Notes: generated by a model not told the origin, from the sequence alone. A DNA stretch of 64,000 nt from an uncultured virus (IMG/VR IMGVR_UViG_3300030376_004046) (IMGVR_UViG_3300030376_004046:1-64000); one strand, 5' to 3'; counted from the first letter of the stretch, positions 1 to 49,911 are shown. A program made the numbers and translations.

Positions 1-155
1 GTTTGTTCTACAACTACAGGGCCTTGATTACCGAACTGATCTAAGTCATTATTCAAGGTTATTGTAATTGGTAAGTATTTACCTTTTTTACCCGCGTATA
101 TTTTATCTTTAGGTATTTTTGTTAGGTCAATACTTGCTTTAATAATACTAGCCAT
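1..155 (-). CDS. Conserved Bacteroidota-phage protein, probable ssDNA-binding protein (runs off the window edge)
   Basis: ATG at 155-153 gives MASIIKASIDLTKIPKDKIYAGKKGKYLPITITLNNDLDQFGNQGPVVVEQT, open to position 1. It follows the exonuclease and ERF genes, so SSB is a context-based inference. Confidence 0.5.
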   Translation of the reverse strand, partial: MASIIKASIDLTKIPKDKIYAGKKGKYLPITITLNNDLDQFGNQGPVVVEQ

Positions 156-165
156 ATAATTTTTT

Positions 166-897
166 TTATAATGTTTTGCTTATGAAATATTGTTTAGGAT
201 CAAAGTCCTTGGTCTTGTAGAACAGATCATAAGCTTCTGCTGCTCTACGCACCTTATCTTCCCCACGTTCATAAAACTCAGGTGAACAATCAAACATGCC
301 TATATTATGCGTGGCTTTATCGACAACTATAAATAGCATCTCATATCCAAACAACTTACTGTAGATATAAGCCTGAGAATCATAGTTATACTTTGACGCT
401 GACCATTTAAACTTTTCAATATCAGCGGTGGTTTTTAAATCAATAACTAGTTTTTCTTCATGATTAACAATATCTGCTTTACCTTTCCAATCGTTGTCGA
501 ACATATTTATTATCTGTGGCTGTTCGTATTCGATTTGTGGGCCTTGTATAAGATCTTTACATATATTATTACTCATTACTTTTTCTCGCATTAATTCAAT
601 TGTATCTACCTCATGTTGTAGCAGACACAGCTCGCCACCAGCAACATCTTTATAAGCTTTTGTATTTCTTGTACTAGACTTGACAACTTTGTATTTATCA
701 ATTTTGCCAGGTTCTAATATACAAGTATGAAAATATCCACCTATTAAAAATGCTGGTGATGGCTTGCTTGGTTCAAACGCTCGTAACGGATCTTTCAATA
801 GTTTACCTATATGCGAGTTAGATAAAAACTTATTACCAAACTCACCATAGTAATCTTCATCGTTACAGAGTCTTTTTAATATTTGCTTTTTGTTCAT
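166..897 (-). CDS. PD-(D/E)XK exonuclease, RecE/exonuclease VIII-like (DUF3799 type)
   Basis: LSNSHI, GGYFHTCILEP, KGKADIV...IDLKTT and YDSQAYIY motifs; adjacent to ERF. Confidence 0.85.
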   Translation of the reverse strand: MNKKQILKRLCNDEDYYGEFGNKFLSNSHIGKLLKDPLRAFEPSKPSPAFLIGGYFHTCILEPGKIDKYKVVKSSTRNTKAYKDVAGGELCLLQHEVDTIELMREKVMSNNICKDLIQGPQIEYEQPQIINMFDNDWKGKADIVNHEEKLVIDLKTTADIEKFKWSASKYNYDSQAYIYSKLFGYEMLFIVVDKATHNIGMFDCSPEFYERGEDKVRRAAEAYDLFYKTKDFDPKQYFISKTL

Positions 898-1423
898 TTG
901 TTAATTTGTATTTAGATTCAATAGCATCAATACTACCGCCTGCAGCTACATACTCTTTTGCTTTAGCTAACTGCTCTTTTGTTATAGTTGGTTTAGCTGC
1001 TTCTTTAATTTTATTTACTGCATTAGACTTACCGTGGTTATTAGTTGAGTCTGCGTCTGCTGTATCATCGATTAAGAATAAATTACCTAGTGCATACTTT
1101 TTACCATAAGATGATGCTGCACCAAACTGCTGTGCTGTTTGCATACCTTTTTGGTTTAAGTCTACGCCGACAATAGCTGTAGCGTGTATAGCATTGTCAC
1201 CATCGGATATTGTTGCTGTTGATTTAATTGTTGGAACAGGGTCGGTCATAATTAATTCTTCATTAAGAATAACTGTAACACCGTGTTTTAATAAGAAAGG
1301 CTTTGTAGCCTCTAAGATGTCTTCAGCTTTACGAAAGTAATACTTACCAAAGCTGTTGTAACTTGATTTTTTAGCTTTTAACTCAGTCTGAATTGTAGCT
1401 AGTTTTTGGTTTAATTTGTTCAT
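863..1423 (-). CDS. erf: ERF-family ssDNA annealing protein
   Basis: N-terminal KKSSYNSFGKYYFR and the ERF signature QQFGAASSYGKKYALGNLFLIDDTADAD. Confidence 0.9.
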   Translation of the reverse strand: MNKLNQKLATIQTELKAKKSSYNSFGKYYFRKAEDILEATKPFLLKHGVTVILNEELIMTDPVPTIKSTATISDGDNAIHATAIVGVDLNQKGMQTAQQFGAASSYGKKYALGNLFLIDDTADADSTNNHGKSNAVNKIKEAAKPTITKEQLAKAKEYVAAGGSIDAIESKYKLTNEQKANIKKTL

Positions 1424-1445
1424 AATTTGGTATTTGGTTTATTAT

Positions 1446-1474
1446 TATAATTACACGTTTTTAATTCATTTTAC
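1446..1474 (-). promoter_or_regulatory. Class II phage promoter (GTAAA-N15-GTAATTATA) upstream of erf
   Basis: Minus strand reads GTAAA atgaattaaaaacgt GTAATTATA, the same architecture as at 8163, 36254 and 48798. Confidence 0.65.
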
Positions 1475-1483
1475 ATTAGTAAC

Positions 1484-2242
1484 TCACAGGTAATCAAGTA
1501 CTTGCGAGTGATCTACATTTTCTACAAGTTTATCAACTGCTTGTCTTTTAAGTTGAGATACTCTTACATAAGCACCACTTCCTTCTATATTTAATTTTTC
1601 AGCTATCTGCTTAGCTGAATGCTTATCACAATCAAGCCCATAACTTAATCTTAATACATTAAACTCTTTGTCATTTAAATGCTGTTTAAGCAATGATGTT
1701 AAATACATATTTAAAAACTCTTGGTTATATGGTTCTGACTTATCTTCTATTTGCATAAACATATCATCATCTTCTCTTGCTGAGTCTATACTTAAAAATA
1801 TACTGTTAAAAAACATAGCCACAGCTTTTTTATCTTTACCAAAGTTTTTGCGTATATTATTTGTTACATGTTCAGGTAAACGCATTTGACCTCTATTTGT
1901 GTCTATAGCTCTACGTATACCACCTTTAATACGTTTAGATAAAAAGCTTTTCATTGTTTTTTCTTGATCATCAGATTCAGCCATTTTATTCCAGTCTATA
2001 CGATCTACGGCTTTACATAGATTTAAATTGCCTTCTTGTATTATATCTAATATACTCATACAACCACTAGCTTGTTGTGATGTTGCAAACTTTCTAGCTA
2101 TATTTTCTACAAGAGGCATAAATAAAGTTATTAATGTATTTCTATCATATAAAGAAAAATGTTCTTTTATTTTTATTCTTGCTATTGTTTTTTCTAAATC
2201 AGTTTTATATCTAATATAGTTCTGTATATTATAATGTTTCAT
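1484..2242 (-). CDS. Phage-encoded sigma-70-family RNA polymerase sigma factor
   Basis: Region 2 LDIIQEGNLNLCKAVDRID...RIKGGIRRAI and MRLPEH; region 4 LNDKEFNVLRLSYGL...SAKQIAEKLNI...RVSQLKRQAVDKL. Confidence 0.9.
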   Translation of the reverse strand: MKHYNIQNYIRYKTDLEKTIARIKIKEHFSLYDRNTLITLFMPLVENIARKFATSQQASGCMSILDIIQEGNLNLCKAVDRIDWNKMAESDDQEKTMKSFLSKRIKGGIRRAIDTNRGQMRLPEHVTNNIRKNFGKDKKAVAMFFNSIFLSIDSAREDDDMFMQIEDKSEPYNQEFLNMYLTSLLKQHLNDKEFNVLRLSYGLDCDKHSAKQIAEKLNIEGSGAYVRVSQLKRQAVDKLVENVDHSQVLDYL

Positions 2243-2862
2243 AGTTGTTTGTTTAACAATTCTTTCTCACGTTTTAACTCTGCACCTATGTTTCTATGTA
2301 TTGTTCTACTAGTACAGTTTAATAATTTAGCTAACTTACTTATAGTTATTTTATTATTATTATTATTTATTTCTAACATACAGTTATATATATCATCTTC
2401 TGTTATGCGTTTACTTCTACCTATTAACTCACCTACAATACGTAGCTTTTTTTCTTTACTNNNNNNNNNNATACGTGTAAAAGGTTTAAATATAACTTTA
2501 CGTAGTTTATTTTTTGGCGGCCTGTCTAAATCTAGCATACTAACCTCATATACTATTTTACGTAGCAAGTCGTCGTGTATAGCAAAACTAATAAAATTAT
2601 TTGACTTATTACATATAACTTCAGCTAATTTTAAAAACATATCTTGATCAAGCTTTGGGTTTAAATACCACAACACCAATAGATGCCATTTTAAAGACCT
2701 GTATGTTGTTATCTTTGCTGACGATCTAAATAGCTCATAACATTGATATGTACCGTTTAGATAAAACATATATACTTCATTATCTATGTCTGGTATATCT
2801 GTTACCGGATGTCTACGGTATACGATGCGATTATTATTTAAATAGTTTAAGTTACGTGACAT
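2239..2862 (-). CDS. Protein with a C-terminal helix-turn-helix (spans an N10 gap)
   Basis: KITISKLAKLLNCTSRTIHRNI HTH motif. Confidence 0.65.
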   Translation of the reverse strand: MSRNLNYLNNNRIVYRRHPVTDIPDIDNEVYMFYLNGTYQCYELFRSSAKITTYRSLKWHLLVLWYLNPKLDQDMFLKLAEVICNKSNNFISFAIHDDLLRKIVYEVSMLDLDRPPKNKLRKVIFKPFTRXXXXSKEKKLRIVGELIGRSKRITEDDIYNCMLEINNNNNKITISKLAKLLNCTSRTIHRNIGAELKREKELLNKQL

Positions 2863-2882
2863 TAGCCTGTTACTAGGTATTA

Positions 2883-3371
2883 TTAATGGGCTGTTGTCAC
2901 AGCCTCAGGTATTTGTTTATATATTTTTTCTTTATTAATGTTGGCAACAACATGTTTTTCACCGATGTAATAATTCCAATATGCTTTAATACTACATTTA
3001 TCTTTATATTCATCTGGCATACATTGAGGTGGTTGTGTAAATTCTGTACGTGGTATATCATTTGGAAACCTCCATAAATGTCTACATTTAGTTATTGACA
3101 TATGTGTCTTACCATATCTTAATTCATATTCAAAGCCTAAAGCTCTCATATGTTCATATAGCCAAGAATAATTAGCTGCACATTGACGTGTCCATATTGT
3201 AGATGGATGGTTTTTATGAGCTAATTTGTAAGGTATATCTAACTTACTACCTAATATATGATGAGCTGCACATAACATTTGAGCTGACTCTAATATCATT
3301 TTAACTACATGCTTATTGTATTGTACTTTAGCCGCTATTACAGGGCTTTCATCTAAATAAAATATATTCAT
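2883..3371 (-). CDS. Pyrimidine-dimer DNA glycosylase/DenV-related protein
   Basis: MNIFYLD...KHVVKMILESAQML, HKNHPSTIW, EYELRYGKTH and PPQCMPDEYK, typical of this phage family. Confidence 0.75.
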   Translation of the reverse strand: MNIFYLDESPVIAAKVQYNKHVVKMILESAQMLCAAHHILGSKLDIPYKLAHKNHPSTIWTRQCAANYSWLYEHMRALGFEYELRYGKTHMSITKCRHLWRFPNDIPRTEFTQPPQCMPDEYKDKCSIKAYWNYYIGEKHVVANINKEKIYKQIPEAVTTAH

Positions 3372-3475
3372 TGTTGTTGTTCTTTAGCTAATTTTTCTAT
3401 TACTTTTACTAGTTTAGTTAATGCCTTAGTTAAGTCGCTAATGTCCTTATACATTTGCTGTTGGTTACGTGTCAT
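3368..3475 (-). CDS. Small coiled-coil hypothetical protein (35 aa)
   Basis: MTRNQQQMYKDISDLTKALTKLVKVIEKLAKEQQQ; start and stop overlap both neighbours. Confidence 0.55.
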   Translation of the reverse strand: MTRNQQQMYKDISDLTKALTKLVKVIEKLAKEQQQ

Positions 3476-3816
3476 TTGTTATGTTTTTTAAGTATTCTAT
3501 TAACTTCGTCCATACGTTGTTTAATAATAGCACATTTTTCATATGCCTCATCTTCTTGAAATAAATTCATAAGTGTCATAAGCTTTGCAGCTTCACCTAG
3601 TGCATTTTCTTCTTCTGTTAGTTCAAGATCTTGGTAAGCCGTTGACCAAGCTATGTCAGACTTGGACACATGGTGAAACCAGTCTTCCATAGACTTAAGT
3701 TTAACCATACGGCTTACGATCTTGATTGCTAATGCATTTAATCCTTCATCACCTACCTTCAATGCATCTATTTTATCTAATATTTGTTTATTAGTTACAC
3801 GTTTATTATCTGTCAT
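3472..3816 (-). CDS. Hypothetical protein with a C-terminal UVR-like motif
   Basis: FQEDEAYEKCAIIKQRM resembles the UvrB/C EdYEkAA.IRD motif. Confidence 0.55.
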   Translation of the reverse strand: MTDNKRVTNKQILDKIDALKVGDEGLNALAIKIVSRMVKLKSMEDWFHHVSKSDIAWSTAYQDLELTEEENALGEAAKLMTLMNLFQEDEAYEKCAIIKQRMDEVNRILKKHNK

Positions 3817-3958
3817 TATTTCTTTTAAATTTAATTATCCATTTATTACCAAAAGCTAGTCTATATTCATTAACTAATCTAATGGCCTCTAGTCTATTAT
3901 CTGCTGTGTCTATAACCTCAGCATCATTATATTCATATAATCCTATTATATTATACAT
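3806..3958 (-). CDS. Small hypothetical protein (50 aa)
   Basis: MYNIIGLYEYNDAEVIDTADNRLEAIRLVNEYRLAFGNKWIIKFKRNNDR fills the gap and overlaps both neighbours. Confidence 0.6.
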   Translation of the reverse strand: MYNIIGLYEYNDAEVIDTADNRLEAIRLVNEYRLAFGNKWIIKFKRNNDR

Positions 3959-4160
3959 TGTCTATTTTTGTTAAGTTATAATAATCTGCTACGTAGTTTA
4001 TATGTCTAGATGTAGTTGGACTCCACCAGCCAAATACGTGTAGCTCTTCATCTACAATCCTTGCAACTCTAGTTGAATAAGAGTATACATCTTCGCCGTT
4101 TATAATACGTAAGTTTTCTTTGTACCTAGGTAATTTAACCATATCTATTGTTTTAGTCAT
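3951..4160 (-). CDS. Hypothetical early protein
   Basis: ORF in the operon with a YSYSTRVA...WWSPTTSRHINY motif seen in small phage proteins. Confidence 0.65.
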   Translation of the reverse strand: MTKTIDMVKLPRYKENLRIINGEDVYSYSTRVARIVDEELHVFGWWSPTTSRHINYVADYYNLTKIDNV

Positions 4161-4485
4161 CTTTTAACACTTTAAATTGGTTAGTAATATTTCTCATTAT
4201 ACTTTCTTCTAAGTCATACGCATCAGTGAAGGTTAAGTCGCTGAGTTCTAGCTTGTTATCATAACCTAGATTGAACTCATATTCAAACATACCGCAATCA
4301 AATTCAAATCTTTCTAGCACTGTATTTACTGCGTCGTTAATTGCATCCATTTGTACTGCTGTTATCTCTGGTTTGTTAACATCTTCTAACTCTTGTTGTT
4401 TAGACTTTAGGTCTACATTTAGTTGTTGTATTTTTTCTTGTAAGCCTTTTACTGTAGCTTCTAACAGTTCTTTGTTTTCTGACAT
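4153..4485 (-). CDS. Hypothetical protein with an N-terminal coiled coil
   Basis: ORF directly downstream of a class I promoter motif. Confidence 0.65.
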   Translation of the reverse strand: MSENKELLEATVKGLQEKIQQLNVDLKSKQQELEDVNKPEITAVQMDAINDAVNTVLERFEFDCGMFEYEFNLGYDNKLELSDLTFTDAYDLEESIMRNITNQFKVLKDD

Positions 4486-4539
4486 TTTATTTAATTTTAT
4501 TTATTAATATTATCTATTAGTTATCGTATTTAGTTTGTG

Positions 4540-4677
4540 TTATTCATACCATACACCATATACTTTGACACCTTTAACCTCACACATTAGTTTTTGTTTC
4601 TTGATCGGTTTTTCTTTTAGTAGGCTTTTGTCCCAGTATTTAGGATTTTTGCTGTTCAGCTTTCTCTTTTTGCTCAT
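4540..4677 (-). CDS. Small basic hypothetical protein (45 aa)
   Basis: MSKKRKLNSKNPKYWDKSLLKEKPIKKQKLMCEVKGVKVYGVWYE. Confidence 0.55.
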   Translation of the reverse strand: MSKKRKLNSKNPKYWDKSLLKEKPIKKQKLMCEVKGVKVYGVWYE

Positions 4678-4767
4678 ATAATTCTATGTTTTTTTCTATG
4701 TTATTAATTTCTCTCTTACCTAGTTTATATATTACTAGTACTATTGCTGATATTACTATTGCTGTAT

Positions 4768-5220
4768 TCATATTACATTATATCTATGTCCATTAACAAT
4801 TACTTTTACTTCTAAATCTTGGTCTACATCATACCTTTCTTTTACTTCTTCATGTTTCCATTTAGGTATATAATCACCATTTGATAGTTTGTTTGATTGA
4901 TTTATATAATAGTTTTTGAGACAAAAGGCTATTAAATATTCTAGTCTTTCTTGTTCGTCTAGTATTAGTATACGTTCTTTTGATGGCCACCTGTAGTCTT
5001 TAGTTGGCTGTATTGTTCTAGTTTTATTTAGTTGCCAACTCGGGCAATAACCACCTGCTTTAGTACGCCTAACATAGCCACTAGCGAAACTTGCGACGTG
5101 TATAGCAGCGCCATACTGGTCGCATACTGGTAGTTTAAACTCACGAGTGCCATTTGCTTTTTGTTTGTCTGTAGTAACTTCTTGTATTTGTAAGAAGTTT
5201 AGTTTATCTGTTATATTCAT
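4768..5220 (-). CDS. Hypothetical early protein
   Basis: 150-aa ORF in the operon. Confidence 0.65.
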   Translation of the reverse strand: MNITDKLNFLQIQEVTTDKQKANGTREFKLPVCDQYGAAIHVASFASGYVRRTKAGGYCPSWQLNKTRTIQPTKDYRWPSKERILILDEQERLEYLIAFCLKNYYINQSNKLSNGDYIPKWKHEEVKERYDVDQDLEVKVIVNGHRYNVI

Positions 5221-5488
5221 AGTATAATGCTTTTAGTTGTTCAATAATTGCTCTACCTGTTCTTGTATTATAGCCATAGCTGTGTGTATGTAGTTGAGGT
5301 ATTGGATCATTAAAGAATAATAATCTCATATAATCTAGAGCATCAGGTGCTTTGGCAAACTGAGTGCTGTAGTTAGTTTCTGCTACATCATTACAAGCTG
5401 CAGCAATACAATCTGGGCAGTGTCTCATGCCATCTGGTGTTCTATAAGACATATAGTCTTTTACTTTTTGCGCTGTTAGTTTTTTCAT
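5204..5488 (-). CDS. Hypothetical early protein (CxxC)
   Basis: ORF 13 nt downstream of a class I promoter motif. Confidence 0.65.
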   Translation of the reverse strand: MKKLTAQKVKDYMSYRTPDGMRHCPDCIAAACNDVAETNYSTQFAKAPDALDYMRLLFFNDPIPQLHTHSYGYNTRTGRAIIEQLKALYYEYNR

Positions 5489-5532
5489 GTTTAATTTTAT
5501 TATATTATCTGTTACTAATCGTTTTTATTTTG

Positions 5533-5590
5533 TGGATAGTGCGGGACTCGAACCCGCTACATTTAACTAATTGTGCCGCCTTTGCTATCC
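5533..5590 (-). ncRNA. Truncated tRNA-like element (acceptor stem and T arm, no proper D or anticodon arm)
   Basis: GGATAGC-N26-GCGGG TTCGAGT CCCGC-ACTATCC-A: a perfect T arm and a GGATAG/CTATCC stem, only about 58 nt. Confidence 0.6.
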
Positions 5591-5655
5591 TATTAGTTAG
5601 TTTGTATAAGTACCGTTCGGTACGAGCCTAGGAGATACTTACTAGTGTACTTATA

Positions 5656-5865
5656 CTAACCTAACATTGTACCATAACCTCTACGCTGAGTTAACTTTGA
5701 TATGCGAGCAGCATCGCTACCTGACATTATCTGTATAGAGTTACCTGTTTTGTGGTTTATTAGTGGTGCACAACCATATGCTTCTGTAGTTGAGCAGTTA
5801 ACACAGTTACTATAACCAAGATTAACTCTGCCTTGAGGTATTATATTTCCACACTTACACTTCAT
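5656..5865 (-). CDS. TraR/DksA-like C4 zinc-finger protein
   Basis: Probable start at 5865; MKCKCGNIIPQGRVNLGYSNCVNC resembles C..CG..IP..R......CV.C. Confidence 0.6.
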   Translation of the reverse strand: MKCKCGNIIPQGRVNLGYSNCVNCSTTEAYGCAPLINHKTGNSIQIMSGSDAARISKLTQRRGYGTMLG

Positions 5866-6020
5866 TACTCTGCAATATAAGTTAGACCTCTGTAGTTGAA
5901 CCAAGTAGTTATTTCACTTGTACCAAATTTTGGTGGTAAACTACATATAGTGTATGGTTTGTATGGTATACCATTTAATTCAATTTTGTTTGCTTTTTTA
6001 AATTTAATTTTGTTTGTCAT
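5865..6020 (-). CDS. Small hypothetical protein (51 aa)
   Basis: MTNKIKFKKANKIELNGIPYKPYTICSLPPKFGTSEITTWFNYRGLTYIAE, 12 nt downstream of a class I motif; its stop overlaps the next ATG. Confidence 0.65.
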   Translation of the reverse strand: MTNKIKFKKANKIELNGIPYKPYTICSLPPKFGTSEITTWFNYRGLTYIAE

Positions 6021-6042
6021 AATTTTTTATTTATATTATCTG

Positions 6043-6282
6043 TTAGTGTTTGTATTTATTTTGTGTATCAATTTCTATACAGTTTACTACTGCTCTATGT
6101 AATAATTCTTCTTGTAATTCTTTTTCTGTTTTTGGTACTTCATTATCCCACACTTCATAGATATACTTATGACATTCTTGTTCTGTTCTGAAAAAACTAC
6201 CTTTTTGTCTACCATAACTATCAGTTACATTTACTGAATAGTGTGTGTTACCTTTGTACTTTGTTATACTATAATCTCTCAT
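6043..6282 (-). CDS. Hypothetical early protein
   Basis: ORF downstream of the class I motif at 6302. Confidence 0.65.
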   Translation of the reverse strand: MRDYSITKYKGNTHYSVNVTDSYGRQKGSFFRTEQECHKYIYEVWDNEVPKTEKELQEELLHRAVVNCIEIDTQNKYKH

Positions 6283-6444
6283 ATTTTATATTTATTTGTT
6301 AATATTATCTTGCTCGCATCGTATTTATGTTGTGTAAAGTATGACATTTGCCTGTTACTCTAGTTTAATTAACTACCTTATGTCACACTTTTAATAAAAG
6401 TACTATAATTGTTTAGTTAATATTTTTAGTGTGGAGGTATTACT

Positions 6445-6678
6445 CTACTTCTCTATGTCTATAATTAGATAAGACATTTCTAAATCATCAATGTAATGAG
6501 TAAATTGTATTTTATTTAGTATTAATTCATTAGTCATTTTAAGTAGACTACAAGTGTATTCAAATAGTACAATAGAATTATCACTATGTTTTGTAATGTG
6601 TTTTAATTTAGTAATTTCTTCACAGTCTTGTAAGTAATGGTATTCTTCGTTTTCTAGTATTTTATATAATTTCTTCAT
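6445..6678 (-). CDS. Hypothetical early protein
   Basis: ORF downstream of the class I motif at 6694. Confidence 0.6.
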   Translation of the reverse strand: MKKLYKILENEEYHYLQDCEEITKLKHITKHSDNSIVLFEYTCSLLKMTNELILNKIQFTHYIDDLEMSYLIIDIEK

Positions 6679-6798
6679 ATTTATTATTTATATATATTAT
6701 CTGATGGTGGTCGTGTTTAGTTTGTGTAAGTGGCGAGCGCTGTGCTATACATCGTGCTATACACGATCACCTTTCGGTGACCGAGTACAACTTCTGTA

Positions 6799-7023
6799 TT
6801 ATCTACAGAATGTTGGTATGTTGTTTGTGTTAGTATAACTTTTGTACTTTTTGAAACAGTTCATGTTATCGAAACGTTCTTTGTTTTTGTTATATACATC
6901 GTCGTGATTGTATGTTATTTGTTTACCTTTTTTAGTTGTGAAAGTTATAATTGTATTAGTACCGATTAGACTTTTTCTGATTACGAATCTTTTTGTTATT
7001 AGTTTGTTTAATTTGTTTGACAT
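6799..7023 (-). CDS. Hypothetical early protein
   Basis: ORF downstream of the class I motif at 7060. Confidence 0.65.
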   Translation of the reverse strand: MSNKLNKLITKRFVIRKSLIGTNTIITFTTKKGKQITYNHDDVYNKNKERFDNMNCFKKYKSYTNTNNIPTFCR

Positions 7024-7103
7024 AGTTATTTATTTATTTAGTTATTAATTTATTTATATATATTATCTATTGTTAGTTGTATTTAGTTTGTGAGTTGAGT
7101 ATA

Positions 7104-7289
7104 TTAATAGTTATGTATTAATATAATAGTATTATTGTGTTGTATTAGTTTAGTGTGTGGGCAATGTAAGTTATTATTGTGTATTGATGTAGTTGGAAAT
7201 GATATTATAGTATTGTTATTAGTATAATAAGTTATATTGTTATTGTTTAAGTAATTTAATGTAGTTTGTTTGTGTTGTTTAGTAGTCAT
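7104..7289 (-). CDS. Low-complexity N/T/I/H-rich ORF, first gene of the minus arm
   Basis: ATG 11 nt downstream of the class I motif at 7301; the coding strand has only two G. Confidence 0.45.
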   Translation of the reverse strand: MTTKQHKQTTLNYLNNNNITYYTNNNTIISFPTTSIHNNNLHCPHTKLIQHNNTIILIHNY

Positions 7290-7333
7290 AGTTTTTATTT
7301 ATATTATCTGATGATAGTCGTATCTAGTTTGTG

Positions 7334-7700
7334 CACTCAGTAGTAAATGCTATACACACTCGCCTTGACGACGAGCGTCGGTGTGCCTCGCTTGTATGGT
7401 CAATGAAATACCAATCATCATACATATATTATCTAGTTAGTATCGTACTTAGCTTGTGCATATGCTATACATCAGCGGCCTGGCCTGGGGCCGGGGGCTG
7501 CCTAGCTATTTCCTAAATATTCTAGGAATAATGTTTTTTTTATTTTAATTACATTATATAATAGAAAGGTAAAAACAATTGTGTGATTATCAAAAACGAA
7601 AGGGGCGGTGGCCAAAGTAGAATGCGTTTTAGTTGTGGCTGGGGCTACTAAAAAAGATATTGTAGCACTATACCCCTATATTTATAATATGTTTTTTTCT
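7334..7700. other. Non-coding divergence island with GC-rich hairpins; probable genome terminus or origin
   Basis: All genes to the left are on minus and those to the right on plus; GC-rich tracts at 7472-7506 and 7600-7650 in an AT-rich genome. Confidence 0.5.
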
Positions 7701-7714
7701 GTGACTATATATAT

Positions 7715-8161
7715 ATGAAGAAACTACTAATTATAATTTTACTATGCTTTAACTATGTTAATGCTCAAACAATATGCGACTCTCTATCTTTTAGTGTAGG
7801 TACAAGCTCGGCGCTTACGGTTATAGGTGTAAACAGTTCTTCAGACAGCACTAACTTTATGTGGGGTGTTTGTGATAACAGCATGTGTTATTCTTCAAGT
7901 GGCGATACTGCATATTTCTTTTTAGTTAATCCAATAGATACAGTAAAGGTATGTTATGATATATCTCCACAGTGGTCGTGTAATGAGTGTTACTATGTTA
8001 TATTCAACGGTTTCACATGGCAACTACTTGATTTCACTACACATGTAAGTGAAGTAAAGCCACAACCTTGCAATAACAAAATATACGACTTGTTAGGCAG
8101 AGAGCTGCGTTATATACCAAAAGGAACTATATATATAAAGAATGGTATACTTTATAAATAG
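7715..8161 (+). CDS. Secreted Cys-rich protein with a T9SS-like C-terminal sorting tail
   Basis: Signal peptide MKKLLIIILLCFNYVNA|Q; C-terminus NNKIYDLLGRELRYIPKGTIYIKNGILYK. Confidence 0.7.
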   Translation: MKKLLIIILLCFNYVNAQTICDSLSFSVGTSSALTVIGVNSSSDSTNFMWGVCDNSMCYSSSGDTAYFFLVNPIDTVKVCYDISPQWSCNECYYVIFNGFTWQLLDFTTHVSEVKPQPCNNKIYDLLGRELRYIPKGTIYIKNGILYK

Positions 8162-9856: not shown

Positions 9857-9963
9857 TGAAGTTTATTAATAAAATAGGCTTAATTGCTATGGGGTGGATA
9901 GGTATATTTGTTACAATATTTCTATATTATATATCTATTAAGTCTATTTTGTTAATGTTTTAA
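9856..9963 (+). CDS. Possible small membrane peptide (35 aa)
   Basis: GTG start overlaps the previous stop; KFINKIGLIAMGWIGIFVTIFLYYISIKSILLMF forms one hydrophobic helix. Confidence 0.35.
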   Translation: MKFINKIGLIAMGWIGIFVTIFLYYISIKSILLMF

Positions 9964-9988: not shown

Positions 9989-11446
9989 ATGGAATACAAT
10001 CAGCCTAGTGAGATTGTCAAAGATGTAAATTTTGGCGATATTGCTAAAAATAAAGTAATTGCTGGTGTTGAAAAGCTAGCAAAAGCAGTAAAATCAACCT
10101 TAGGAGCATCTGGAAAGTGTGTTATATACGAAGATGCTAGAGGTAACCCGGTCATAACAAAAGATGGTGTAACCGTTGCAGAATCGGTAGTCTTATTTGA
10201 CCCGGTTGAAAACATGGGTGCTACCCTTATTAAGGAAGCTGCTAGAAACACAGTGAGAGAAGCGGGCGATGGAACAACTACAGCTACCGTACTCGCTGAA
10301 TCTCTATTAAAAGAAGTAAACAACAGCGAAGGAACTGTTAGAGAGATAAAAGACGGGATTAAATCCGGTCTTAAAAAGGTAAACGATTACCTAGATAAGA
10401 TTTCTGTCAAGATCGAAGGCGATATGCTCGAATCTGTTAGTTCAATAAGTTGCAATAATGATGCAGAACTAGGAAAGATTATAGCAGAAGCTTATACTAA
10501 AGTAGGTAAAGATGGTGTGGTGTTAATGGAAGAGCTTGATAACCCATTAGTATTAATAGTATCTTCAGAAATACCAAACATAAGAAAAATACAAACAGTA
10601 TTAGAGCACGTGATAAAAAACAAACGGCCTTTACTTATAGTTGCTCCAGTTGACCAACAAGTTAAAGCTGCTCTTCTTATGAATAAAGTAAAAGGTAATA
10701 TTAAAGTTAACATAATTGACTTACCAGGCTTTGGTCCTACTAAAGACGATACAGTTGCTGACTTAGCTTTTCTTGTAGGAGCTAAGGTTATAAATGAGCA
10801 ACTAGGTGATGATCTTGATTTAATCGATGTAGATTGTTTAGGTGAAGCGTATAACGCTATTACTGATGATAAAAACACGGTGTTAACTATAGAAACTCCA
10901 GAAGATCAAATGGAGGAAAGAATTAAAAGTATTAAGAAAACTATAGATAAATGGGAAAAGAATCCATTTATACAGAAAAAACATAGAGAAAGATTAGCTA
11001 TGCTATCAGGATCGGTTGGAATGGTGAAGGTAGGTGCTGATTCTAAAGTTGAACTTAAAGAAAAGAAAGATAGAATAGAAGATGCTATTTACGCTACAAA
11101 AGCGGCTTTGAAAGAAGGAATAGTACCAGGAGGAGGTGTAGCACTGCTAAACGCGTCTCAAAAAATTTCGACCGACTGCGTCGGTGAAAAGATATTACTA
11201 GAAGCTATTTCAGCACCTTATAAAACTATATTAGAAAACGCTGGTTTAGTTATGAACGTAAATATCATAGAAGGTACTGGTATTAATGTAATAACAGGTA
11301 AAGCAGTTGACATGATTGAATCTGGTATTATAGATCCAGTTCTTGTTACTAAGTCTGCGCTTAAAAATGCAGTAAGTGTAGTATCAACAATTATATCTGC
11401 AGATTGTGTAATTTCAAATATGAGAATGAATGAAAGNNNNNNNNNN
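9989..11446 (+). CDS. groEL: Chaperonin GroEL (Cpn60) with an apparent internal deletion; true stop lies in the N gap
   Basis: VITKDGVTVA, GDGTTTATVLA, EGIVPGGG and GIIDP motifs. Confidence 0.95.
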
Positions 11447-36261: not shown

Positions 36262-36282
36262 AGCACAAAAACTGTGACTATA
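36254..36282 (+). promoter_or_regulatory. Class II phage promoter GTAAA-N15-GTGACTATA
   Basis: Matches the motif; precedes the ejection-protein block. Confidence 0.65.
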
Positions 36283-36305
36283 TTAGATATAAATTAAATT
36301 AAATT

Positions 36306-39115: not shown

Positions 39116-42100
39116 ATGAATAACACGGAAGAAATCGAAATAAAAGACGTTATAAACATTAATAATGTTACTACTGGTGATATTATTAAAATGAACAGAG
39201 AACAGGTTAAACTTGTTCAAAAGCAGCTAGTAGATCTCGGTGCTGATCTTGGTAAAACTGGTCCTAATAAAGACGGTGCCGACGGGGATTGGGGACGTAT
39301 ATCTAGAGCTGCTTTTAGTTTTTATAAACAAGGTAACGATTTAAAAGATTTTGTACCACCTCCACCAATAAAAAAAGTTGACACAAGTAAAAATCCTTAT
39401 CAAAAATCTAACGCTTTAAAAGACGTGTTAAAAGAATTTGTAATAACTGCACTAAACTCTTCACCATCTAGGTATAAAGAAGGTGTTGATTCTGATAATA
39501 TTGATGTTGAAGATTTTGACTTCTGGAGTATTGTAGGTAAAAAGTTTCCAGATTTACAAGGTTATGATCCAAAACTGTTAAACGCGTATGCTAGTACAAT
39601 AGATAAAAGATCTTTTGATACAAATCCTAATCAAATCCCTAAAATAGCAGATATTAATTGGGAAGAAATAAACGAAATGTATACCGATGATTTTAATTTT
39701 TTAGCCCCTTCTCATGAATTAGCAAATCAAAACGGTAGGGGTACTGATGGTATTGTACAGCCTGTTGGATGGTGGGAAGATAAATACGCAAAAGAAAATG
39801 ATCAATACGGCGATGGTCTTGATGATAATTTTTGGTATCAAGGTGGAGGTCCAGATATGATGTTAGGACCGTATACGAAGTCAAGCGACGAAGGTAACAC
39901 TTGGACTCCCATGACCATAGAAGAGATTGATTTATATGAGAAAAAAAGAAAAAGAAATCAAATTAATAGGTGGAGAAATCAATCTAATTTAGATAGTGAA
40001 CAAGCAATAAAGTATTCTACTCCATTAGAAAACGCTTATAGATTTTCTCCATCAGAAAAACAAGAAAATGCTGTTGTTGCTAAAAACAAAAGTGCTATTG
40101 ATGATATTCTTTCAAAAATTAGAAAGTATAATGCTTTAGTAGCAAAGCAAGGTGATTATTATAATCCTAGTGCACTTTCTCTTACCAATGAAAATCAGGG
40201 AAGTTATATTGTAAAAGATCAAAATGGAAAAATTGTACATAATTTAGCTTGGGGTGTAGGGTCAAATCCTTGTAAATATAGTGGTGGTAAAGTTGTAAAA
40301 AGCAGTTACTTAGGCTGGGACTGTAATAAATTAAGAGCACTTGTTAGCGATCCTAAATTTATAAATGAAAGAAAGTTACAGCTGTCTATAAAGGGTACTT
40401 GGACATATTTTAAATATTTAAAAGCTAGGAACAAACTGCAAAAGTTAGATAAAGAAAGAGGATTGATAACTGACAACGTAGGCCCATATAGATTTATAAC
40501 AGGTACTCTTGATCCAAATTTTGAAGGAGTTCCTTTGTATAAAGTTTTTGATAATACTCCATCTGAAGGCGCTGGAGATGAATTTGTTCAAAGTGGTGAT
40601 TATTATTTAAACCAATCAAACGGACAAAAGTATCAATATATTGATGGGAAGCACGTGGTTCAAGAAGAGTTTCCTTTTCAATGGACTACCGAAAGAAATA
40701 TTAGAAGAGAGATGAACCAAATGTTTATTGACGATGCTGCAGCTGAAATAACACAAAACAATGTAGAAAATTATGTTGACAACAATCAATCATGGTGGCA
40801 ACTTACAACGCCAGCCACTCAGAAAAAACTAACAAAAGACACAGAAGCCGCGTTAAAAACTTTAGGCAAAGATGCTAAAAAAAATGTTACACTTTTAAAA
40901 ACAACAATAGGTCTTATTGAAGATGGGCAAGTTGAAATAAGTAAGTTGTTAAAATCATATAGAACAAAAGCCGAAGAAAAAGCAAATTATTTTACAGCTA
41001 AATCAGAAGAGATTGATTTAAAGTTTGAGCGAATAGGTAAACCAGTAACATATGGTCCTTTTAAATGGGGTGAATATCAATACAACGCATATAATAGCAT
41101 TGTAAAAGAAGCTAATGATTTAAAAGCTGAATACAACACTGCACAAAAAGAATTAGAAAACGAACGCATACAAATAAAAACCCTACAAGATCAACAAAAA
41201 AGTAATGTAGTTGCATATAACAAGTACTTACTAACAGCAGAAAGTCTTGTTAAAGATGAAGAAGAACTTATTGAGTTTCACAATCATATATCAAGAAATG
41301 GACATCCTATAACTTTTGCTGCTGCTAAACTTTTAGCTAGTGCAACATCTATTGCTAGTGGTCTTGAAGGCTTAATAGCTGAGATACCTATGAATATAGA
41401 GAAAATAGTACCAGGTCATTGGACAGATGAATACCCTACTATTAACGCTATTACGTCAACGCTTGAAGGTTGGGGAGATTCTTTTGAGGAATGGAGGGGA
41501 GGTATACCTATTGTTGAAAATGGTAAATTTACCGGTCAATATACCAGCGGTTATAAGGCGGAATTAAAAAACTTTGTTGCAGAATTACATAATGGTGTTA
41601 CAGTAATGCCAGAGTGGGGAAATCTTAAATCTGCTGAAGATTACGGTATGTATATATTTGGATCTGTATCTCAGTTCTTGCCACAACTTGTAGTACTATA
41701 TGCTAGTGGTGGTACCGCTGGGTTATCAATTCTTGCTGGCTCTGCAGCAGGTAGTAGTTTGGATGAATCTAGATTTTCAAATCAACTTGGTACCACTGAT
41801 TATAGTTTGGCACAAAGATGGATGCACGCTGGTCTTATATTTGGCGCTGAGTACACTACTGAAAAATTTACACTTGGTATACTAAAAAGAACACCAAATC
41901 CTTTAAAAAAACGTATACACACTGGTTTTGTTGATACTTTTAAGAAAACTTTTCAGCCAAAAAGCTTAGGTCTTGGCGCTTATTATATGACTGGAGAGTC
42001 GTTGTCAGAAGGAGCTGCAACGGTGTTTGGGCAAAACTTAGGCGATAAATTTATTTATGGCATGAACGAGGTGAGCATATGGAGAGACGCTCCTGAATCT

Positions 42101-45100
42101 ATGGCTCAAGGTCTTATTATGGAGCGTACTGTTACTATGCCTGGTATTATAGCTAATAATTTTATAAGACCTTTTGTAGGTAAAACCTACGATATGCAGA
42201 TAGATTTATATAGCAATAGATTAAAAAATATTTCAGATAAATTAAAAAATCCAGCCTTAACTTCAGATAAAAAGATGAGATTGCTCAGCGAGTATATGGA
42301 TATTACTTTAGAACGAAGCGCTTATTCCCAAGAAAACTTCGAGAATGTTGATATGATGAACGAAAAAGAAGTTGAAGAGTTAATAGAAATAGACGTAAAA
42401 CTTCACGAGCAAAGAAAAAAAGAAGATGATATAAGAGAGGACAACGACTTAAATAGAGAAGAAAAAATAGACGGAATAAAAGAAAGTCGTATAGAAGAAA
42501 ATAAACTAAAAGATAGAAGAAATCAAATTGTAGAGCCATATGAAAATGTTGAAACTAGAGAAAAAAAGGTTAAGCAATATAAAGAGAATAAAAAGTGGCT
42601 TATAGATAAAATTAAAAAATACAACGATCGTAGAGATAAAAAATACGGTGTTGGTAAAGGCACTAGACTTGTTTTTGAAGAGCTTGAAACAACTCAAGAT
42701 GTTAAAGATTTTTTTGAAAATTTGTTCATGCAAGATGCTGCTCTCATTAGAGAAGAAATATCAATGTTTGAAGAGTTGTTAAAAAGTCCCAAAACACCTA
42801 GAGTTCAAAAAACTAAAATACGTCAAGAGTTAGAAATACTTAGAAGAGAGCAGCGTGATAACTTTAAGAGAATGAAAAAAGGGCCTGACTCTCACGGTTT
42901 TATACATAGAGATAGAGACGGAAATAGTACTATATATGTAAATAAAAAAGTTTCTTTATTAGATAAAAATGGAAATGTATTTGTAGCTGCTCATGAGTTT
43001 TTACACTTTGCTTTGCAAAACACAATAAAAGGTGATGACTCTATTAGAACTAAATTAGGCGATGCATTGCTTGAATACACTAACACGTTGAAAACTGATA
43101 GTACTTATAAGCTTAGAAAAAAACTAAGTAGATATGGTACTTTTGATACAGATGGAAACTTTAAAAAAGATTCAAACTTTGGCGAAGAAGTTATTACGTT
43201 AATGTCTGAATCTATATTAGATGGTACATTAGAATACAACGAAGGGTTTTTTACTAAAATAGGTGATTTTGTAAGACAAACATTACAAAAATATGGAATA
43301 ATAGGTATTAAATTCAATACTGGTAAAGACGTATATAATTTCATAAAAGATTATAATGCTTCTATGAAAAAAGGTTATGAAAGCAGCGCTATTAACCAGG
43401 CAATAGATAATGGAGCTAAAGGAATATTAGTTGAAGGAGCGCAGGACAAGGGTAATGATTATTTTCAAATGTCTAAAGGATCTAAAAAAGAGGTTGACGA
43501 TTTAGCCAACATGGGTTGGGATAATAAATCTTGGAAAGAACAAGGTTATAAATTTGCCATTGGTGAGTTGCAAGAAAATAGATTACTTGATGGTTTAATT
43601 AGAGCACAATACAAAGCAGATATTGTACCACCTGATTTTGTTAGCGATGTATATGCACAGTTAACTAGACATGTAAGAAACTTTAATCCTGAAATGAATG
43701 ATAGTTTGTTTGGTTGGATAAACAGTCAGCTACATAATAAAGCGGCTGAGGTTTATAATAAAATTTATAAACAAACAGCAGAAGGAAAATTTGCAAAACC
43801 TATAGAAGATAAAACTAAAGAAGGTGAAACAAAAGTTCAAGTGGCTGCTGAAAAAGATGTTGATATGGAAGCTTTTGAAACAGAAGATATATCACCAGCA
43901 GCTCAAGCTAGAAAAAAAGCTAAGTCTAAAGCTAAAAAAGAATCTGAGTTTAGAAGAGTAATTAGTTTTGAAACTAATAGCGATATATACAATGAAATAT
44001 TAGAATCTGCTAAAAAAAGTTTAATAAGAGCATATGCTAAGACTAGAAATATTAAAGATGTTGCCGCAAGAGAAAGAGCCGTACTAGAAGAGTTACAAAA
44101 AGAACATAACAGCCTTAACAGTCCTTTGTTTAAACAAATTAAAAACTGGTTATCATATGGTATACCAAAAGAAGTTGTTCCCAAAGGCACTAAAGATATA
44201 TATCTTGAAAACTTAAAACAGTTTAGAGAAGATATAGTGAAACTTATATCAACAGCTGATTTTGTACAAATAGAAAGACTTGTTGCTGAACAAGATAAAA
44301 TTTTTACTAGATTTAAAGGACAACTTACTAGAAAAGGAGACGTTGAAAAAGCTGTAAACGAAGGTAGATTACCGCCAGATTCTTTAAGAAAATATGATAA
44401 AGACAAAAAAGTTCCTGAATACGACAAGGTAATACCTGATCAAACTCAAATTATAGAATATGCTGATCAGCCTGGATCTATACCTTCTAAAAAAGATCCT
44501 ACTAAAATGGTTAGAAGTGGATTAAAAGGTACTAGAAAAGATGGTCTTACAAAAAACATTGTAAACGGATTAGTACTAGACGCTTTAATGGAAGCTAGAC
44601 AAAGTAAAGAAGTTCAAGATATGTTAGCTGAAATGGATGTAGATGCTACAAGCGTACAACAGTTAAGCGTAACTATAGGTAGACCAGCAGATGTTATGTT
44701 TTCAAGTGCTTATGACTCTTCTAAAATAATTGATTTATTTGAAATAAATAGAAAGTACAAGTCTAAGTTAATGGGTCAAAACCAAATAAATAAGTCTATA
44801 GATTTTCTTAAATATTTAATAAACTCTACAGAACCAGCTGGTAATTACGGTTCTGTTGTACGAATAGCAGAAGTATTAAAAAGTGAAATAGAAAGAGGTG
44901 GTACTTTTTCTAATATAGTTGATCGTACTTGGAATCAAATACAATTAGAAGGTATTGCTAATTATCAAATTGAAAGCACGTTATATGATGGTGCTTTAAC
45001 GCCAAAACATTTAGATAATTTACTAGGTAAAGCTAAAAGATTTTCAGATGCACAAATAAGAAATATAGCTTTTCCTAAGATTGTTGAAGATTTACAGCAG

Positions 45101-48831: not shown

Positions 48832-49911
48832 ATGGTGAAAAAACTAATAATACTACTGCTATTACTACCTAGTTTAGTAGTTTGTCAAACTTTTAAAAAA
48901 GAAGACCTTGAAGACTTGCTAAAGTTTTCTACTTTTTATGCCGCAGTTAACGGTGGTACATCATTATCTGATGTTGATGTATTTTCTGTAGATAATGGTT
49001 TATCTACACAAACTATTTCAACTCCTTATGATTATAATTTTACCATAGGACTCCGTAAAATAGCTAGGTTTGGATATGAGAATAAGGCAAATACTTTTTA
49101 CGATGGTACGGAATCTAATTACAGTGACGCGGCAACTGTTGGTAAAGTTAGAGGGGTTGAGTATTTATTTGAAATAGATTACAAAAGACAAGAAGGAGTA
49201 GATTATATGGATCAACATCATTTTATTAGATTTAGTTCTGACGATGGTTGTCCTGATGAATTATGTGTAAACTTTTTTGCTTTAAAACTAGAGTATCTTG
49301 AAGATGGTTTTGCAGATGTAAAATATTTTGAAGCTTCAGAACGTTATAGACATAGAAAAAATGCTAATTTATCTTGGAACATAGGGCTAACGCATCGCTT
49401 AGCTGAACCATACGGTTATAACGCTTTAGATGAGTGGATGTTAAGCAATGGCAATATACATTATACTTATTTAGCGTTACAAGAAGGATATACGGTCGAT
49501 GTGTATAGCAGTGAGTACTATAATCCAGCTGGCGAATTAGTGGCTACAAGCGCTGAAGTTTGGGAGGCAGTTGTTATACCTGAAGTGTTAGCTGGTTACA
49601 CTCAAAAGAAAAGAAACGAATTAAAAAAAACAATACAACACTCTTTAGTTTTAGGATTTGATTATTACAAATATTCTAAATCAACATGGCTACACGCTTG
49701 GGGTAGTATAATGCCTTATCACTATGATGATGGTAGCGAGTTTAGTTATCACAATTATGTTGATGGTCAATGGTATGATTACTCAGGAGGGTTAATATAT
49801 GGTATAAAAGTAAACAAACAACTAGGGTATTTTGTAGAAGGAAAGTATAATAAATATTGGAACAGAGAGTGGTACGATTTTAAACTAGGAGTTAACTACA
49901 CAATTTTTTAA
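48832..49911 (+). CDS. Predicted outer-membrane beta-barrel protein
   Basis: Signal peptide ending VVC|Q, aromatic alternating strands, and C-terminal YDFKLGVNYTIF (terminal Phe beta-signal). Confidence 0.7.
   Translation: MVKKLIILLLLLPSLVVCQTFKKEDLEDLLKFSTFYAAVNGGTSLSDVDVFSVDNGLSTQTISTPYDYNFTIGLRKIARFGYENKANTFYDGTESNYSDAATVGKVRGVEYLFEIDYKRQEGVDYMDQHHFIRFSSDDGCPDELCVNFFALKLEYLEDGFADVKYFEASERYRHRKNANLSWNIGLTHRLAEPYGYNALDEWMLSNGNIHYTYLALQEGYTVDVYSSEYYNPAGELVATSAEVWEAVVIPEVLAGYTQKKRNELKKTIQHSLVLGFDYYKYSKSTWLHAWGSIMPYHYDDGSEFSYHNYVDGQWYDYSGGLIYGIKVNKQLGYFVEGKYNKYWNREWYDFKLGVNYTIF

Follow-up and report, generated by a model that had tools for sequence, protein, structure and literature searches.

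How does a phage transcribe its first genes when these stand behind a repeated element unlike the host promoter consensus, and when no RNA polymerase gene is found in its genome? The question is raised by the uncultured virus IMGVR_UViG_3300030376_004046 (IMG/VR), of which a stretch of 64,000 nt (bases 1-64,000 of the 68,711-bp virus record; G+C content 32.7%) was analysed and is called the window here. An initial annotation of the window had described a bipartite motif, present eight times within 3 kb, as a phage-specific class of early promoter, and had named a sigma-like domain in a 3225-amino-acid (aa) protein as the candidate factor that recognises it. Based on sequence comparison, we assign the eight repeats with moderate confidence to promoters private to a clade of podophages of marine Flavobacteriia, which would be read by the host core RNA polymerase carrying a sigma factor that the phage itself encodes.

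Eight copies of a bipartite motif precede the leftward genes

A search for CTAAATACGA-N8-AGATAATAT with up to three mismatches returned eight matches in the window, all on the minus strand between 4507 and 7458 (starting at 4507, 5502, 6033, 6302, 6694, 7060, 7301 and 7426), whereas shuffled sequence gave a mean of 0.08 matches and a maximum of two, and 0 of 100 shuffles reached eight. The 9-mer AGATAATAT is exact and the prefix CACAA is present in all eight copies, and the spacer is constant in length and variable in sequence, confirming the initial description on each of these points. A looser pattern applied to the whole genome added a weaker minus-strand copy at 507-539 and a poor plus-strand match at 49182. 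Seven of the eight copies end 11-36 nt upstream of the ATG of an open reading frame (ORF), and the copy at 7426 is directly followed by a possible ORF of 23 codons. The statement that almost every small gene has its own copy holds in part, as the ORFs at 5656-5865, 4768-5220, 4640-4771 and 4540-4677 share a promoter with an upstream gene. The copies, with the transcription starts predicted below, are as follows.

7426-7458, minus strand: predicted promoter copy 1, the most upstream; the predicted start (A at 7421) is the A of an ATG, for a possible leaderless ORF of 23 codons or a short RNA.
7301-7333, minus strand: predicted promoter copy 2, before the ORF at 7104-7289 (61 aa); leader of 7 nt from a predicted start at 7296.
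7060-7092, minus strand: predicted promoter copy 3, before the ORF at 6799-7023 (74 aa); leader of 32 nt from a predicted start at 7055.
6694-6726, minus strand: predicted promoter copy 4, before the ORF at 6445-6678 (77 aa); leader of 11 nt from a predicted start at 6689.
6302-6334, minus strand: predicted promoter copy 5, before the ORF at 6043-6282 (79 aa); leader of 15 nt from a predicted start at 6297.
6033-6065, minus strand: predicted promoter copy 6, before the ORF at 5865-6020 (51 aa); leader of 8 nt from a predicted start at 6028; overlaps the end of the upstream ORF.
5502-5534, minus strand: predicted promoter copy 7, before the ORF at 5204-5488 (94 aa); leader of 9 nt from a predicted start at 5497; adjoins a tRNA-like fragment.
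4507-4539, minus strand: predicted promoter copy 8, before the ORF at 4153-4485; leader of 17 nt from a predicted start at 4502.
507-539, minus strand: ninth copy, weaker than the others (CACAAATCGAATACGA-N8-AGATAATAA) and located within the exonuclease ORF; kept at the same place in relatives.

The record is rated complete (CheckV). Its leftward genes run from about 7458 to 1 and continue from the far end of the record down to 63629, and its rightward genes run from 7715 to 63600. The leftward arm opens with about 12 small ORFs to which no function is assigned, followed in order by genes for a DNA-binding protein, a 207-aa helix-turn-helix (HTH) protein, a 252-aa sigma factor, Erf and an exonuclease and, beyond the record end, by genes for a primase/helicase, thymidylate synthase, MazG, a resolvase and ribonucleotide reductase. 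The rightward arm encodes GroEL/GroES, a holin, terminase, portal and virion proteins, a 2151-aa protein with a crAss-type muzzle domain, the 3225-aa protein and an endolysin. It is this gene content from which the small leftward genes are putatively labelled early. The copy at 4507 heads the gene run that ends with the HTH protein, sigma, Erf and exonuclease; the sigma gene thus lies downstream of this copy in the window, and in some relatives a copy stands directly before the sigma gene.

Further elements lie among the copies. A stable minus-strand hairpin with a GAAA loop and without a U tract (6760-6790; z = -4.6) is located between an early gene and copy 4, and a tRNA-like fragment consisting of an acceptor stem and T arm alone (5541-5600, minus strand) is located directly upstream of copy 7. 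ARAGORN called no tRNA in this fragment, which gave a weak Rfam match to the T arm of tmRNA (E 0.005); nothing reached the Rfam threshold over 4300-7800. The sequence TGTATAGCA occurs in four exact copies within about 730 bp (6743-7471, minus strand), each after a G+C-rich hairpin or tract and before a promoter copy, and also precedes the first promoter in several relatives; its window-wide occurrence at one mismatch is not above chance. The divergent control region at 7460-7715 holds a G+C-rich tract, which is odd in a genome of 33% G+C, and shares with relatives a layout of an A run, ATTATAAATATAGGGGTATAGTG, a C-rich tract and then AAAACGCA; this region is a candidate for a genome end, packaging site or origin. 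On the plus strand, CTGTGACTATAT occurs exactly twice, at 7699-7710 before the first rightward gene and at 36272-36283 before a tail-fibre-like gene. It stands at homologous positions in two relatives, where it forms half of a long inverted repeat, and may be a late promoter or a leader structure. The window contains two runs of ten N, at 2461-2470 inside the HTH gene and at 11437-11446 near the end of groEL.

The motif is conserved across a clade and has the geometry of a sigma-70-family promoter

Thirty-six related loci were fetched from viral contigs using the sigma protein as bait (sigma 53-87% identical). Extending the motif search to these relatives, as the initial annotation had proposed along with the full-genome search that yielded the ninth copy, located the loosened motif in 32 of the 36 loci, and the four without it have less than 4 kb of sequence upstream of the sigma gene. 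With a stricter core, defined as AAATACGA (up to two mismatches), N9 and GATAATA (up to one mismatch), 230 of 255 matches were on the strand of the sigma gene, and 214 distinct same-strand sites gave the consensus yACAAa.tAAATACgA-N9-GATAATA. In the columns not forced by the search, 66% of these 214 sites have T at -1 and 92% carry a purine at +1, which sits exactly 7 nt past the last T of GATAAT. Use of GATAATA alone as an anchor returned 323 distinct sites on the strand of sigma and 104 on the other strand, and the upstream AAATA accompanied 168 of the former and 6 of the latter. The predicted start was 0-40 nt before the next ORF at 114 of 212 sites, compared with 24 of 200 random positions, a conservative figure because the ORF calls are crude.

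Promoters of sigma-70-family holoenzymes usually have their -10 hexamer at -12 to -7 relative to the start. Counted from the conserved purine, GATAAT would occupy -12 to -7, and it has A at its second and T at its sixth position in all eight window sites. A purine start about 7 nt after the hexamer, preceded by a pyrimidine, is likewise present as a sequence signature, with Y then A at the predicted start in seven of the eight window copies. The upstream block yACAAAyTAAATACGA would span -37 to -22; within it, CAAAyT at -35 to -30 gives a 17-bp spacing to the -10 element, and AAATACGA at -29 to -22 is best conserved. By these sequence features the motif has the geometry of a sigma-70-family promoter, from which we infer that transcription starts at the sites. 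No earlier description of the motif was returned by a literature search limited to one collection, and the phi38:1 transcriptome paper makes no mention of promoters.

The nearest deposited relatives by terminase identity are the uncultured podovirus MW202828.1 (64%), Flavobacterium 'elemo' phages (45%) and Cellulophaga and Tenacibaculum phages (33-39%), and the clade has no cultured member. The stretch was found mainly in marine DNA runs, and in one metatranscriptome with a small share.

The motif compared with host and other known promoters

Housekeeping promoters of Bacteroidota carry TTTG at -33 and TAnnTTTG at -7. TAnnTTTG was absent from the transcribed (minus) strand between 4300 and 7700, and a scan of positions 1-8000 for TTGACA/TATAAT called none of the eight motif sites; the 56 sites that it did call, relative to 44.2 +/- 5.9 in shuffles, were judged not above chance. 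The claim that the motif does not match the Bacteroidota consensus in the direction of transcription is therefore correct, and together with its restriction to the clade this supports, at the level of sequence, the proposal of a promoter class private to the phage clade and unlike the host consensus. An antisense reading was also considered, as the reverse complement holds TTAnTTTG, one mismatch off the Bacteroidota -7 box, and was rejected because the CAAA part can be CAAT in relatives and a -33 element is missing. The sole intergenic host-type site in the genome (TTG, 19 nt, TATATTTG) lies at 9880-9910 on the plus strand, before the phage groEL gene.

None of the eight sites folded as single-stranded DNA into a hairpin promoter of the N4 type (lowest energy -1.2 kcal/mol). 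AATACGA-N8-AG is reminiscent of a T7 promoter, a likeness that was rejected on account of the variable spacer and of the ORF scans, which turned up no polymerase gene. The promoter of sigma-28 (FliA) is TAAAGTTT-n11-GCCGATAA (PMC2859248, in part); TAAA and GATAA are both present in the phage motif but are 4 bp closer together.

The phage encodes a complete sigma factor beside an HTH protein

The initial annotation had overlooked a stand-alone sigma gene, which lies with its neighbour in the leftward arm.

1484-2242, minus strand: phage sigma-70-family factor of 252 aa with regions 2, 3 and 4; closest solved relative FliA/sigma-28.
2239-2862, minus strand: protein of 207 aa whose C-terminal part holds a helix-turn-helix; the stop of its gene overlaps the start of the sigma gene, and a masked N run (2461-2470) lies inside.

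Judged by its profile matches, the 252-aa protein is a complete sigma-70-family factor. It matched phrog_351 (E 2e-20), TIGR02937 (60 bits, cut-off 42.9) and Sigma70_r2 (25.3 bits, and 25.6 bits in a six-frame Pfam search of the genome; cut-off 24), with Sigma70_r4 slightly below its cut-off (23.9 against 24.1), and it matched FliA (1rp3) over its full length (E 6e-11). Across the whole genome, the six-frame Sigma70_r2 search pointed to two places only, the sigma gene and a stretch of the 3225-aa protein. The sigma profile matched 8000 of 8000 scored candidates; the search gave close relatives only, and the profile could not be deepened. In genome collections, the sigma was found on contigs of metagenome-assembled genomes (MAGs) only, mostly short contigs binned with unrelated taxa. 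One Flavobacteriaceae MAG carries it on a 117-kb contig and on a 25-kb contig (L127, L128). The 117-kb contig is about twice the length of the phage genome and is maybe a concatemer binned with its host, a weak hint at the host.

The HTH gene adjoins the sigma gene in 34 of the 36 related loci. No RNA polymerase family matched any of 68 ORFs scanned against PHROGs and Pfam; a whole-genome search with PF00940 ran without a working control.

Motif and sigma factor occur together in relatives

Records of ten further large relatives were compared, eight of which carry the sigma gene (77-100% complete, CheckV estimate). In seven of these eight nearly all pattern matches were on one strand (4-10 matches in six records, one match in G003), and the reversed pattern, used as a control, gave 0-1 matches. 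The eighth, G009, has just two weak matches, one per strand. The two records without the sigma are G001, which is cut off, and one estimated to be 88% complete. G001 holds the domain of the 3225-aa protein and no sigma, and as a counterexample it is uninformative because its early arm is cut off, with Erf and the DNA-binding protein also missing.

Five complete sigma-less relatives (elemoA, phi13:2, phi38:1, Gundel_1 and MW202828.1) gave 0-2 weak matches, like the reversed-pattern control. MW202828.1, the nearest of them, has no copy of the motif; it carries instead (L001/L002, 43745-55154) 15 copies, 14 of them exact, of the 16-bp palindrome GTGTCGTTAACGACAC, mostly 20-40 nt before small early genes, which may be an operator or a hairpin-type promoter. 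As the sigma-less lineages lack the motif and MW202828.1 has the palindrome, the repeated early element changes with the transcription factors of the lineage. These sigma-less phages also lack the domain of the 3225-aa protein, which is present in every testable sigma-bearing one. The co-variation of motif and sigma-like domain that the initial annotation had proposed to examine was thus seen, in that both are missing from sigma-less relatives, but the stand-alone sigma shows the same pattern.

The 3225-aa protein contains a module that resembles sigma region 2

The protein named by the initial annotation lies among the structural genes, and the following features of it are relevant here.

39116-48793, plus strand: 3225-aa multidomain protein of the polyvalent-protein type in the structural arm, with HExxH and DxDxT motifs and an LPD38/39-like C-terminal part.
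43478-43792, plus strand: sigma region 2-like domain (aa 1455-1559), identified by fold search and followed by a disordered acidic linker.
43928-44710, plus strand: conserved domain behind the linker (aa 1605-1865), with a confident model and no solved fold matched.

The HExxH at aa 1293-1297 and a HAD-like DxDxT at aa 2266-2270 are invariant. The protein has no Pfam match at threshold and no DxDxD motif. For its C-terminal part, the protein atlas leads to clusters carrying LPD38 or LPD39. Its most conserved part, at 46433-48415 (plus strand), has dozens of invariant residues over 23 homologues, with the LPD38/39-like lead alone to describe it.

Sequence searches with the module gave hints below curated scores. 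Sigma70_r2 reached 12.7 bits (cut-off 24) over aa 1507-1543 (43634-43744) and TIGR02937 reached 18-20 bits (cut-off 42.9) with the window sequence, so that no sequence match of the module attained a curated score. Among 13 diverged homologues of the module, TIGR02937 matched three (best E 3.9e-6), two more matched other sigma-70 sub-families, and Pfam Sigma70_r2 matched none; in the protein atlas, 23 of 30 named neighbours of the module are Sigma70_r2 clusters. Profile searches of the protein, both at full length and with the region, against the sequences of solved structures returned coiled-coil noise only and no sigma, and hhalign of the module region with the phage's own sigma family gave a probability of 0.1%. 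An exhaustive profile search with the module returned, among its best 150 matches, strong members of its own family only, mostly giant proteins and fragments, and the search for small free-standing homologues of the sigma-2-like stretch found one fragment. The domain comprises 480 representative clusters.

Residues 1455-1870 were folded with the 13 homologues. In the resulting model, residues 1-100 are mostly helical with a predicted local distance difference test (pLDDT) score >90, residues 101-151 are disordered and acidic, and a second domain follows. A fold search against 48,161 solved chains returned sigma-factor entries in rows 1-28 save for two unnamed chains, with Z scores of 5.3-7.0; these rows match model residues 1-105, with 71-110 aa aligned and a root-mean-square deviation (rmsd) of about 3-3.6 for most. 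SigB (8x6g_H) heads the list with Z 7.0 and an rmsd of 3.4 over 89 aa, sigma-32 (8hkc_E; Z 6.9) is also among the top rows, and the other entries include SigK, SigI6, SigE, SigW, AlgU, RpoS, SigR, sigma-70 and sigma-28. The highest-probability Foldseek rows (0.66-0.91) are likewise sigma-factor entries. Z scores of 5-7 are not decisive by themselves, as helical bundles can match by arrangement alone; because the match list is nearly exclusive to sigma factors and sequence hints agree, aa 1455-1559 likely carry a sigma-2 fold. The domain behind the linker, folded alone (pLDDT 85.5, predicted template modelling score 0.82), had a best Z of 4.9 with unrelated chains, and no sigma-3 or sigma-4 fold was matched; this lack of a match shows neither novelty nor the absence of DNA reading. 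In the modelled structure we see a sigma-2 module rather than a whole sigma factor.

Candidate readers of the predicted promoters

In the reading that we favour, the host core RNA polymerase would read the sites when carrying a phage-supplied sigma factor and not the host housekeeping sigma. GATAAT at -12 to -7 would serve as the -10 element, with a purine start 7 nt on and the upstream block at -37 to -22, and the promoters would drive the leftward arm, namely the small early genes, the HTH protein, sigma, Erf, the exonuclease and the replication genes. The main reader would most likely be the FliA-like 252-aa sigma, possibly aided by its constant HTH neighbour; with regions 2, 3 and 4, its architecture makes it a fuller candidate than the module of the 3225-aa protein. 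Since the sigma gene is downstream of the same promoters, the loop would be self-amplifying and its first round would need a primer.

Several observations weigh against this assignment. The sigma is encoded behind the promoters that it would read, and the model alone cannot start an infection; candidates for the primer are an injected sigma-2 module, the sigma itself in the virion, and leaky reading by the host. In locus L003, the sigma is 87% identical and has the same region-4 helix, yet the ACGA part of the block is lost, and the close sigmas of L024 and L025 pair with different bases at -37, -35 and -13. The strongest upstream conservation, AAATACGA at -29 to -22, is nearer to the -10 element than a classical -35 element, and co-occurrence does not discriminate between the sigma and the domain of the 3225-aa protein because both are features of the clade. 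In classical cascades such as that of phiEco32, moreover, the phage sigma serves middle and late genes and not early ones (PMC12276001, in part). Part of the upstream block may be read by another protein, or the copies may have been homogenised by recombination.

The bootstrapping problem would be solved if the sigma-2 module of the 3225-aa virion protein entered with the DNA, bound the host core polymerase and opened the private promoters within the first minutes, after which the stand-alone sigma would take over or lock the switch, or serve other promoters. This scenario is unlikely, although several lines of evidence point to it: the sigma-2 fold with its exclusive fold-search list and the Foldseek rows at 0.66-0.91, the TIGR02937 matches in 3 of 13 homologues, the six-frame Sigma70_r2 search in which the module is one of two places, and the 23 of 30 Sigma70_r2 clusters in the protein atlas. 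An invariant HExxH about 160 aa upstream and disordered linkers flanking the module fit release by cleavage, and the C-terminal part is like LPD38/39 of polyvalent proteins, which are proposed to be injected (PMC5512222, in part). However, all sequence matches of the module are below curated cut-offs, the profile searches of solved structures are without a sigma, hhalign to the phage sigma gives 0.1%, and Z scores of 5-7 can reflect a helical arrangement and concern a sigma-2 fold only. The nearest sequence models of the module are of the extracytoplasmic function (ECF) type, and the usual -10 elements of ECF sigmas are unlike GATAAT, which counts against this scenario. Packaging and injection follow solely from gene position. 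The initial proposal that the sigma-like domain is the reader is therefore upheld as regards the sigma-2 fold, while the stand-alone sigma, the restriction to a sigma-2 fold and the derivation of injection from gene position speak against it. No primer would be needed if the host holoenzyme recognised the promoters directly and the phage sigma were kept for genes transcribed later, the order of a classical cascade. The combination of GATAAT and a Y/R start is generic among bacteria, host-dependent middle promoters of Cellulophaga phage phi14:2 are reported to resemble ordinary -35/-10 promoters and to be used by the Escherichia coli holoenzyme (bioRxiv 10.1101/2020.03.07.982082, in part), and the late arm has another conserved element, CTGTGACTATA at 7699 and 36272 and also in two relatives, that could be the target of the phage sigma. 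Direct host reading is nevertheless quite unlikely, as the transcribed strand of the region lacks TTTG/TAnnTTTG, none of the eight sites passes the TTGACA/TATAAT scan, the 16-bp upstream block is conserved far more than host promoters show, and the sigma-less relatives are without the motif, though these are distant and infect other hosts.

Two further explanations take the upstream block as their starting point. The block, centred near -30 as MotA boxes are (also PMC12276001, in part), could bind a phage regulator such as the 207-aa HTH protein and switch a weak generic -10 element in the manner of T4. The HTH gene is in an operon with sigma in 34 of 36 loci, and the ACGA sub-block varies independently of sigma region 4; but the block lacks dyad symmetry, hairpins form at none of the eight sites, and the recognition helix of the HTH protein is also unchanged where the block changes, which together render an operator improbable. 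That the repeats serve a phage-encoded RNA polymerase of T7, N4 or crAss type is already disfavoured and highly improbable. The length of the conserved signal, the T7-like AATACGA-N8-AG (rejected above) and the shared crAss-type muzzle domain would suit such an enzyme, whereas no scanned ORF matches a polymerase family, the giant protein lacks DxDxD and its full-length profile has no N4 or crAss polymerase among the solved-structure matches, none of the eight sites forms a hairpin, and the spacer is variable where T7-type promoters are conserved.

Discussion

Host core polymerase with a phage sigma has its closest known system in phiEco32, a podophage without a polymerase that redirects the host core with the divergent sigma gp36, private promoters and a small co-factor, gp79 (PMC12276001, in part). 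In phiEco32, however, host sigma-70 is used for the early genes and gp36 for the middle and late ones, with the element AATGTA at -11.5 (PMC12276001, in part), whereas in the phage studied here the private promoters precede the first genes and the sigma gene, and a 16-bp upstream block is present. The sigma-28 promoter shares with the motif a GATAA core and an upstream TAAA, and the best solved relative of the phage sigma is FliA; it differs in that T-to-G measures 22 nt as against 18 nt in the studied phage, whose upstream block is longer and whose setting is a phage of Flavobacteriia (PMC2859248, in part).

At T4 middle promoters, the host sigma is kept and remodelled, with a MotA box and AsiA. 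These promoters are similar to the motif in having a -10 element and a phage-specific box near -30 that replaces the -35 element (PMC12276001, in part). The studied phage differs in encoding a full sigma, and no relatives of MotA or AsiA were seen in it. As with the virion RNA polymerase of N4 and gp66 of the crAss-like phage phi14:2, a giant protein among the structural genes could start early transcription on entry (PMC4496689 and bioRxiv 10.1101/2020.03.07.982082, both in part), and the studied phage is linked loosely to crAss-like phages by gene order and the muzzle domain. The N4 and phi14:2 proteins are whole polymerases, while that of the studied phage has a sigma-2-like module only, with no catalytic motif found; furthermore, N4 promoters are hairpins, and phi14:2 early transcripts are without a common motif, according to the same sources in part (PMC4496689; bioRxiv 10.1101/2020.03.07.982082). 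Polyvalent proteins resemble the 3225-aa protein as giant multidomain proteins among late genes with a metallopeptidase-like HExxH and an LPD38/39-like part (PMC5512222, in part). A sigma-2 module would be a domain type unlisted in that source, since sigma, as a word or Greek letter, occurs 0 times in its main text.

What this analysis adds is the pair of stand-alone sigma and HTH protein, the signature at the start site and evidence from fold searches for a sigma-2 module. Phages that reprogram the host polymerase with a sigma factor of their own are well known, and their first genes are then read by the host sigma or by an injected polymerase. In the studied phage, private promoters stand before the very first genes and the sigma gene and no polymerase gene was found, so the loop must be primed. 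The sigma-2 fold in a giant protein of the structural arm is a concrete, testable candidate for the primer and, if priming by an injected module is true, it would constitute a protein-primed, self-amplifying sigma takeover without host sigma or phage polymerase. The clade is very large and among the most abundant marine phage clades, and the consensus with its predicted starts could aid the annotation of transcription units in many marine viral contigs and guide the mapping of metatranscriptomes.

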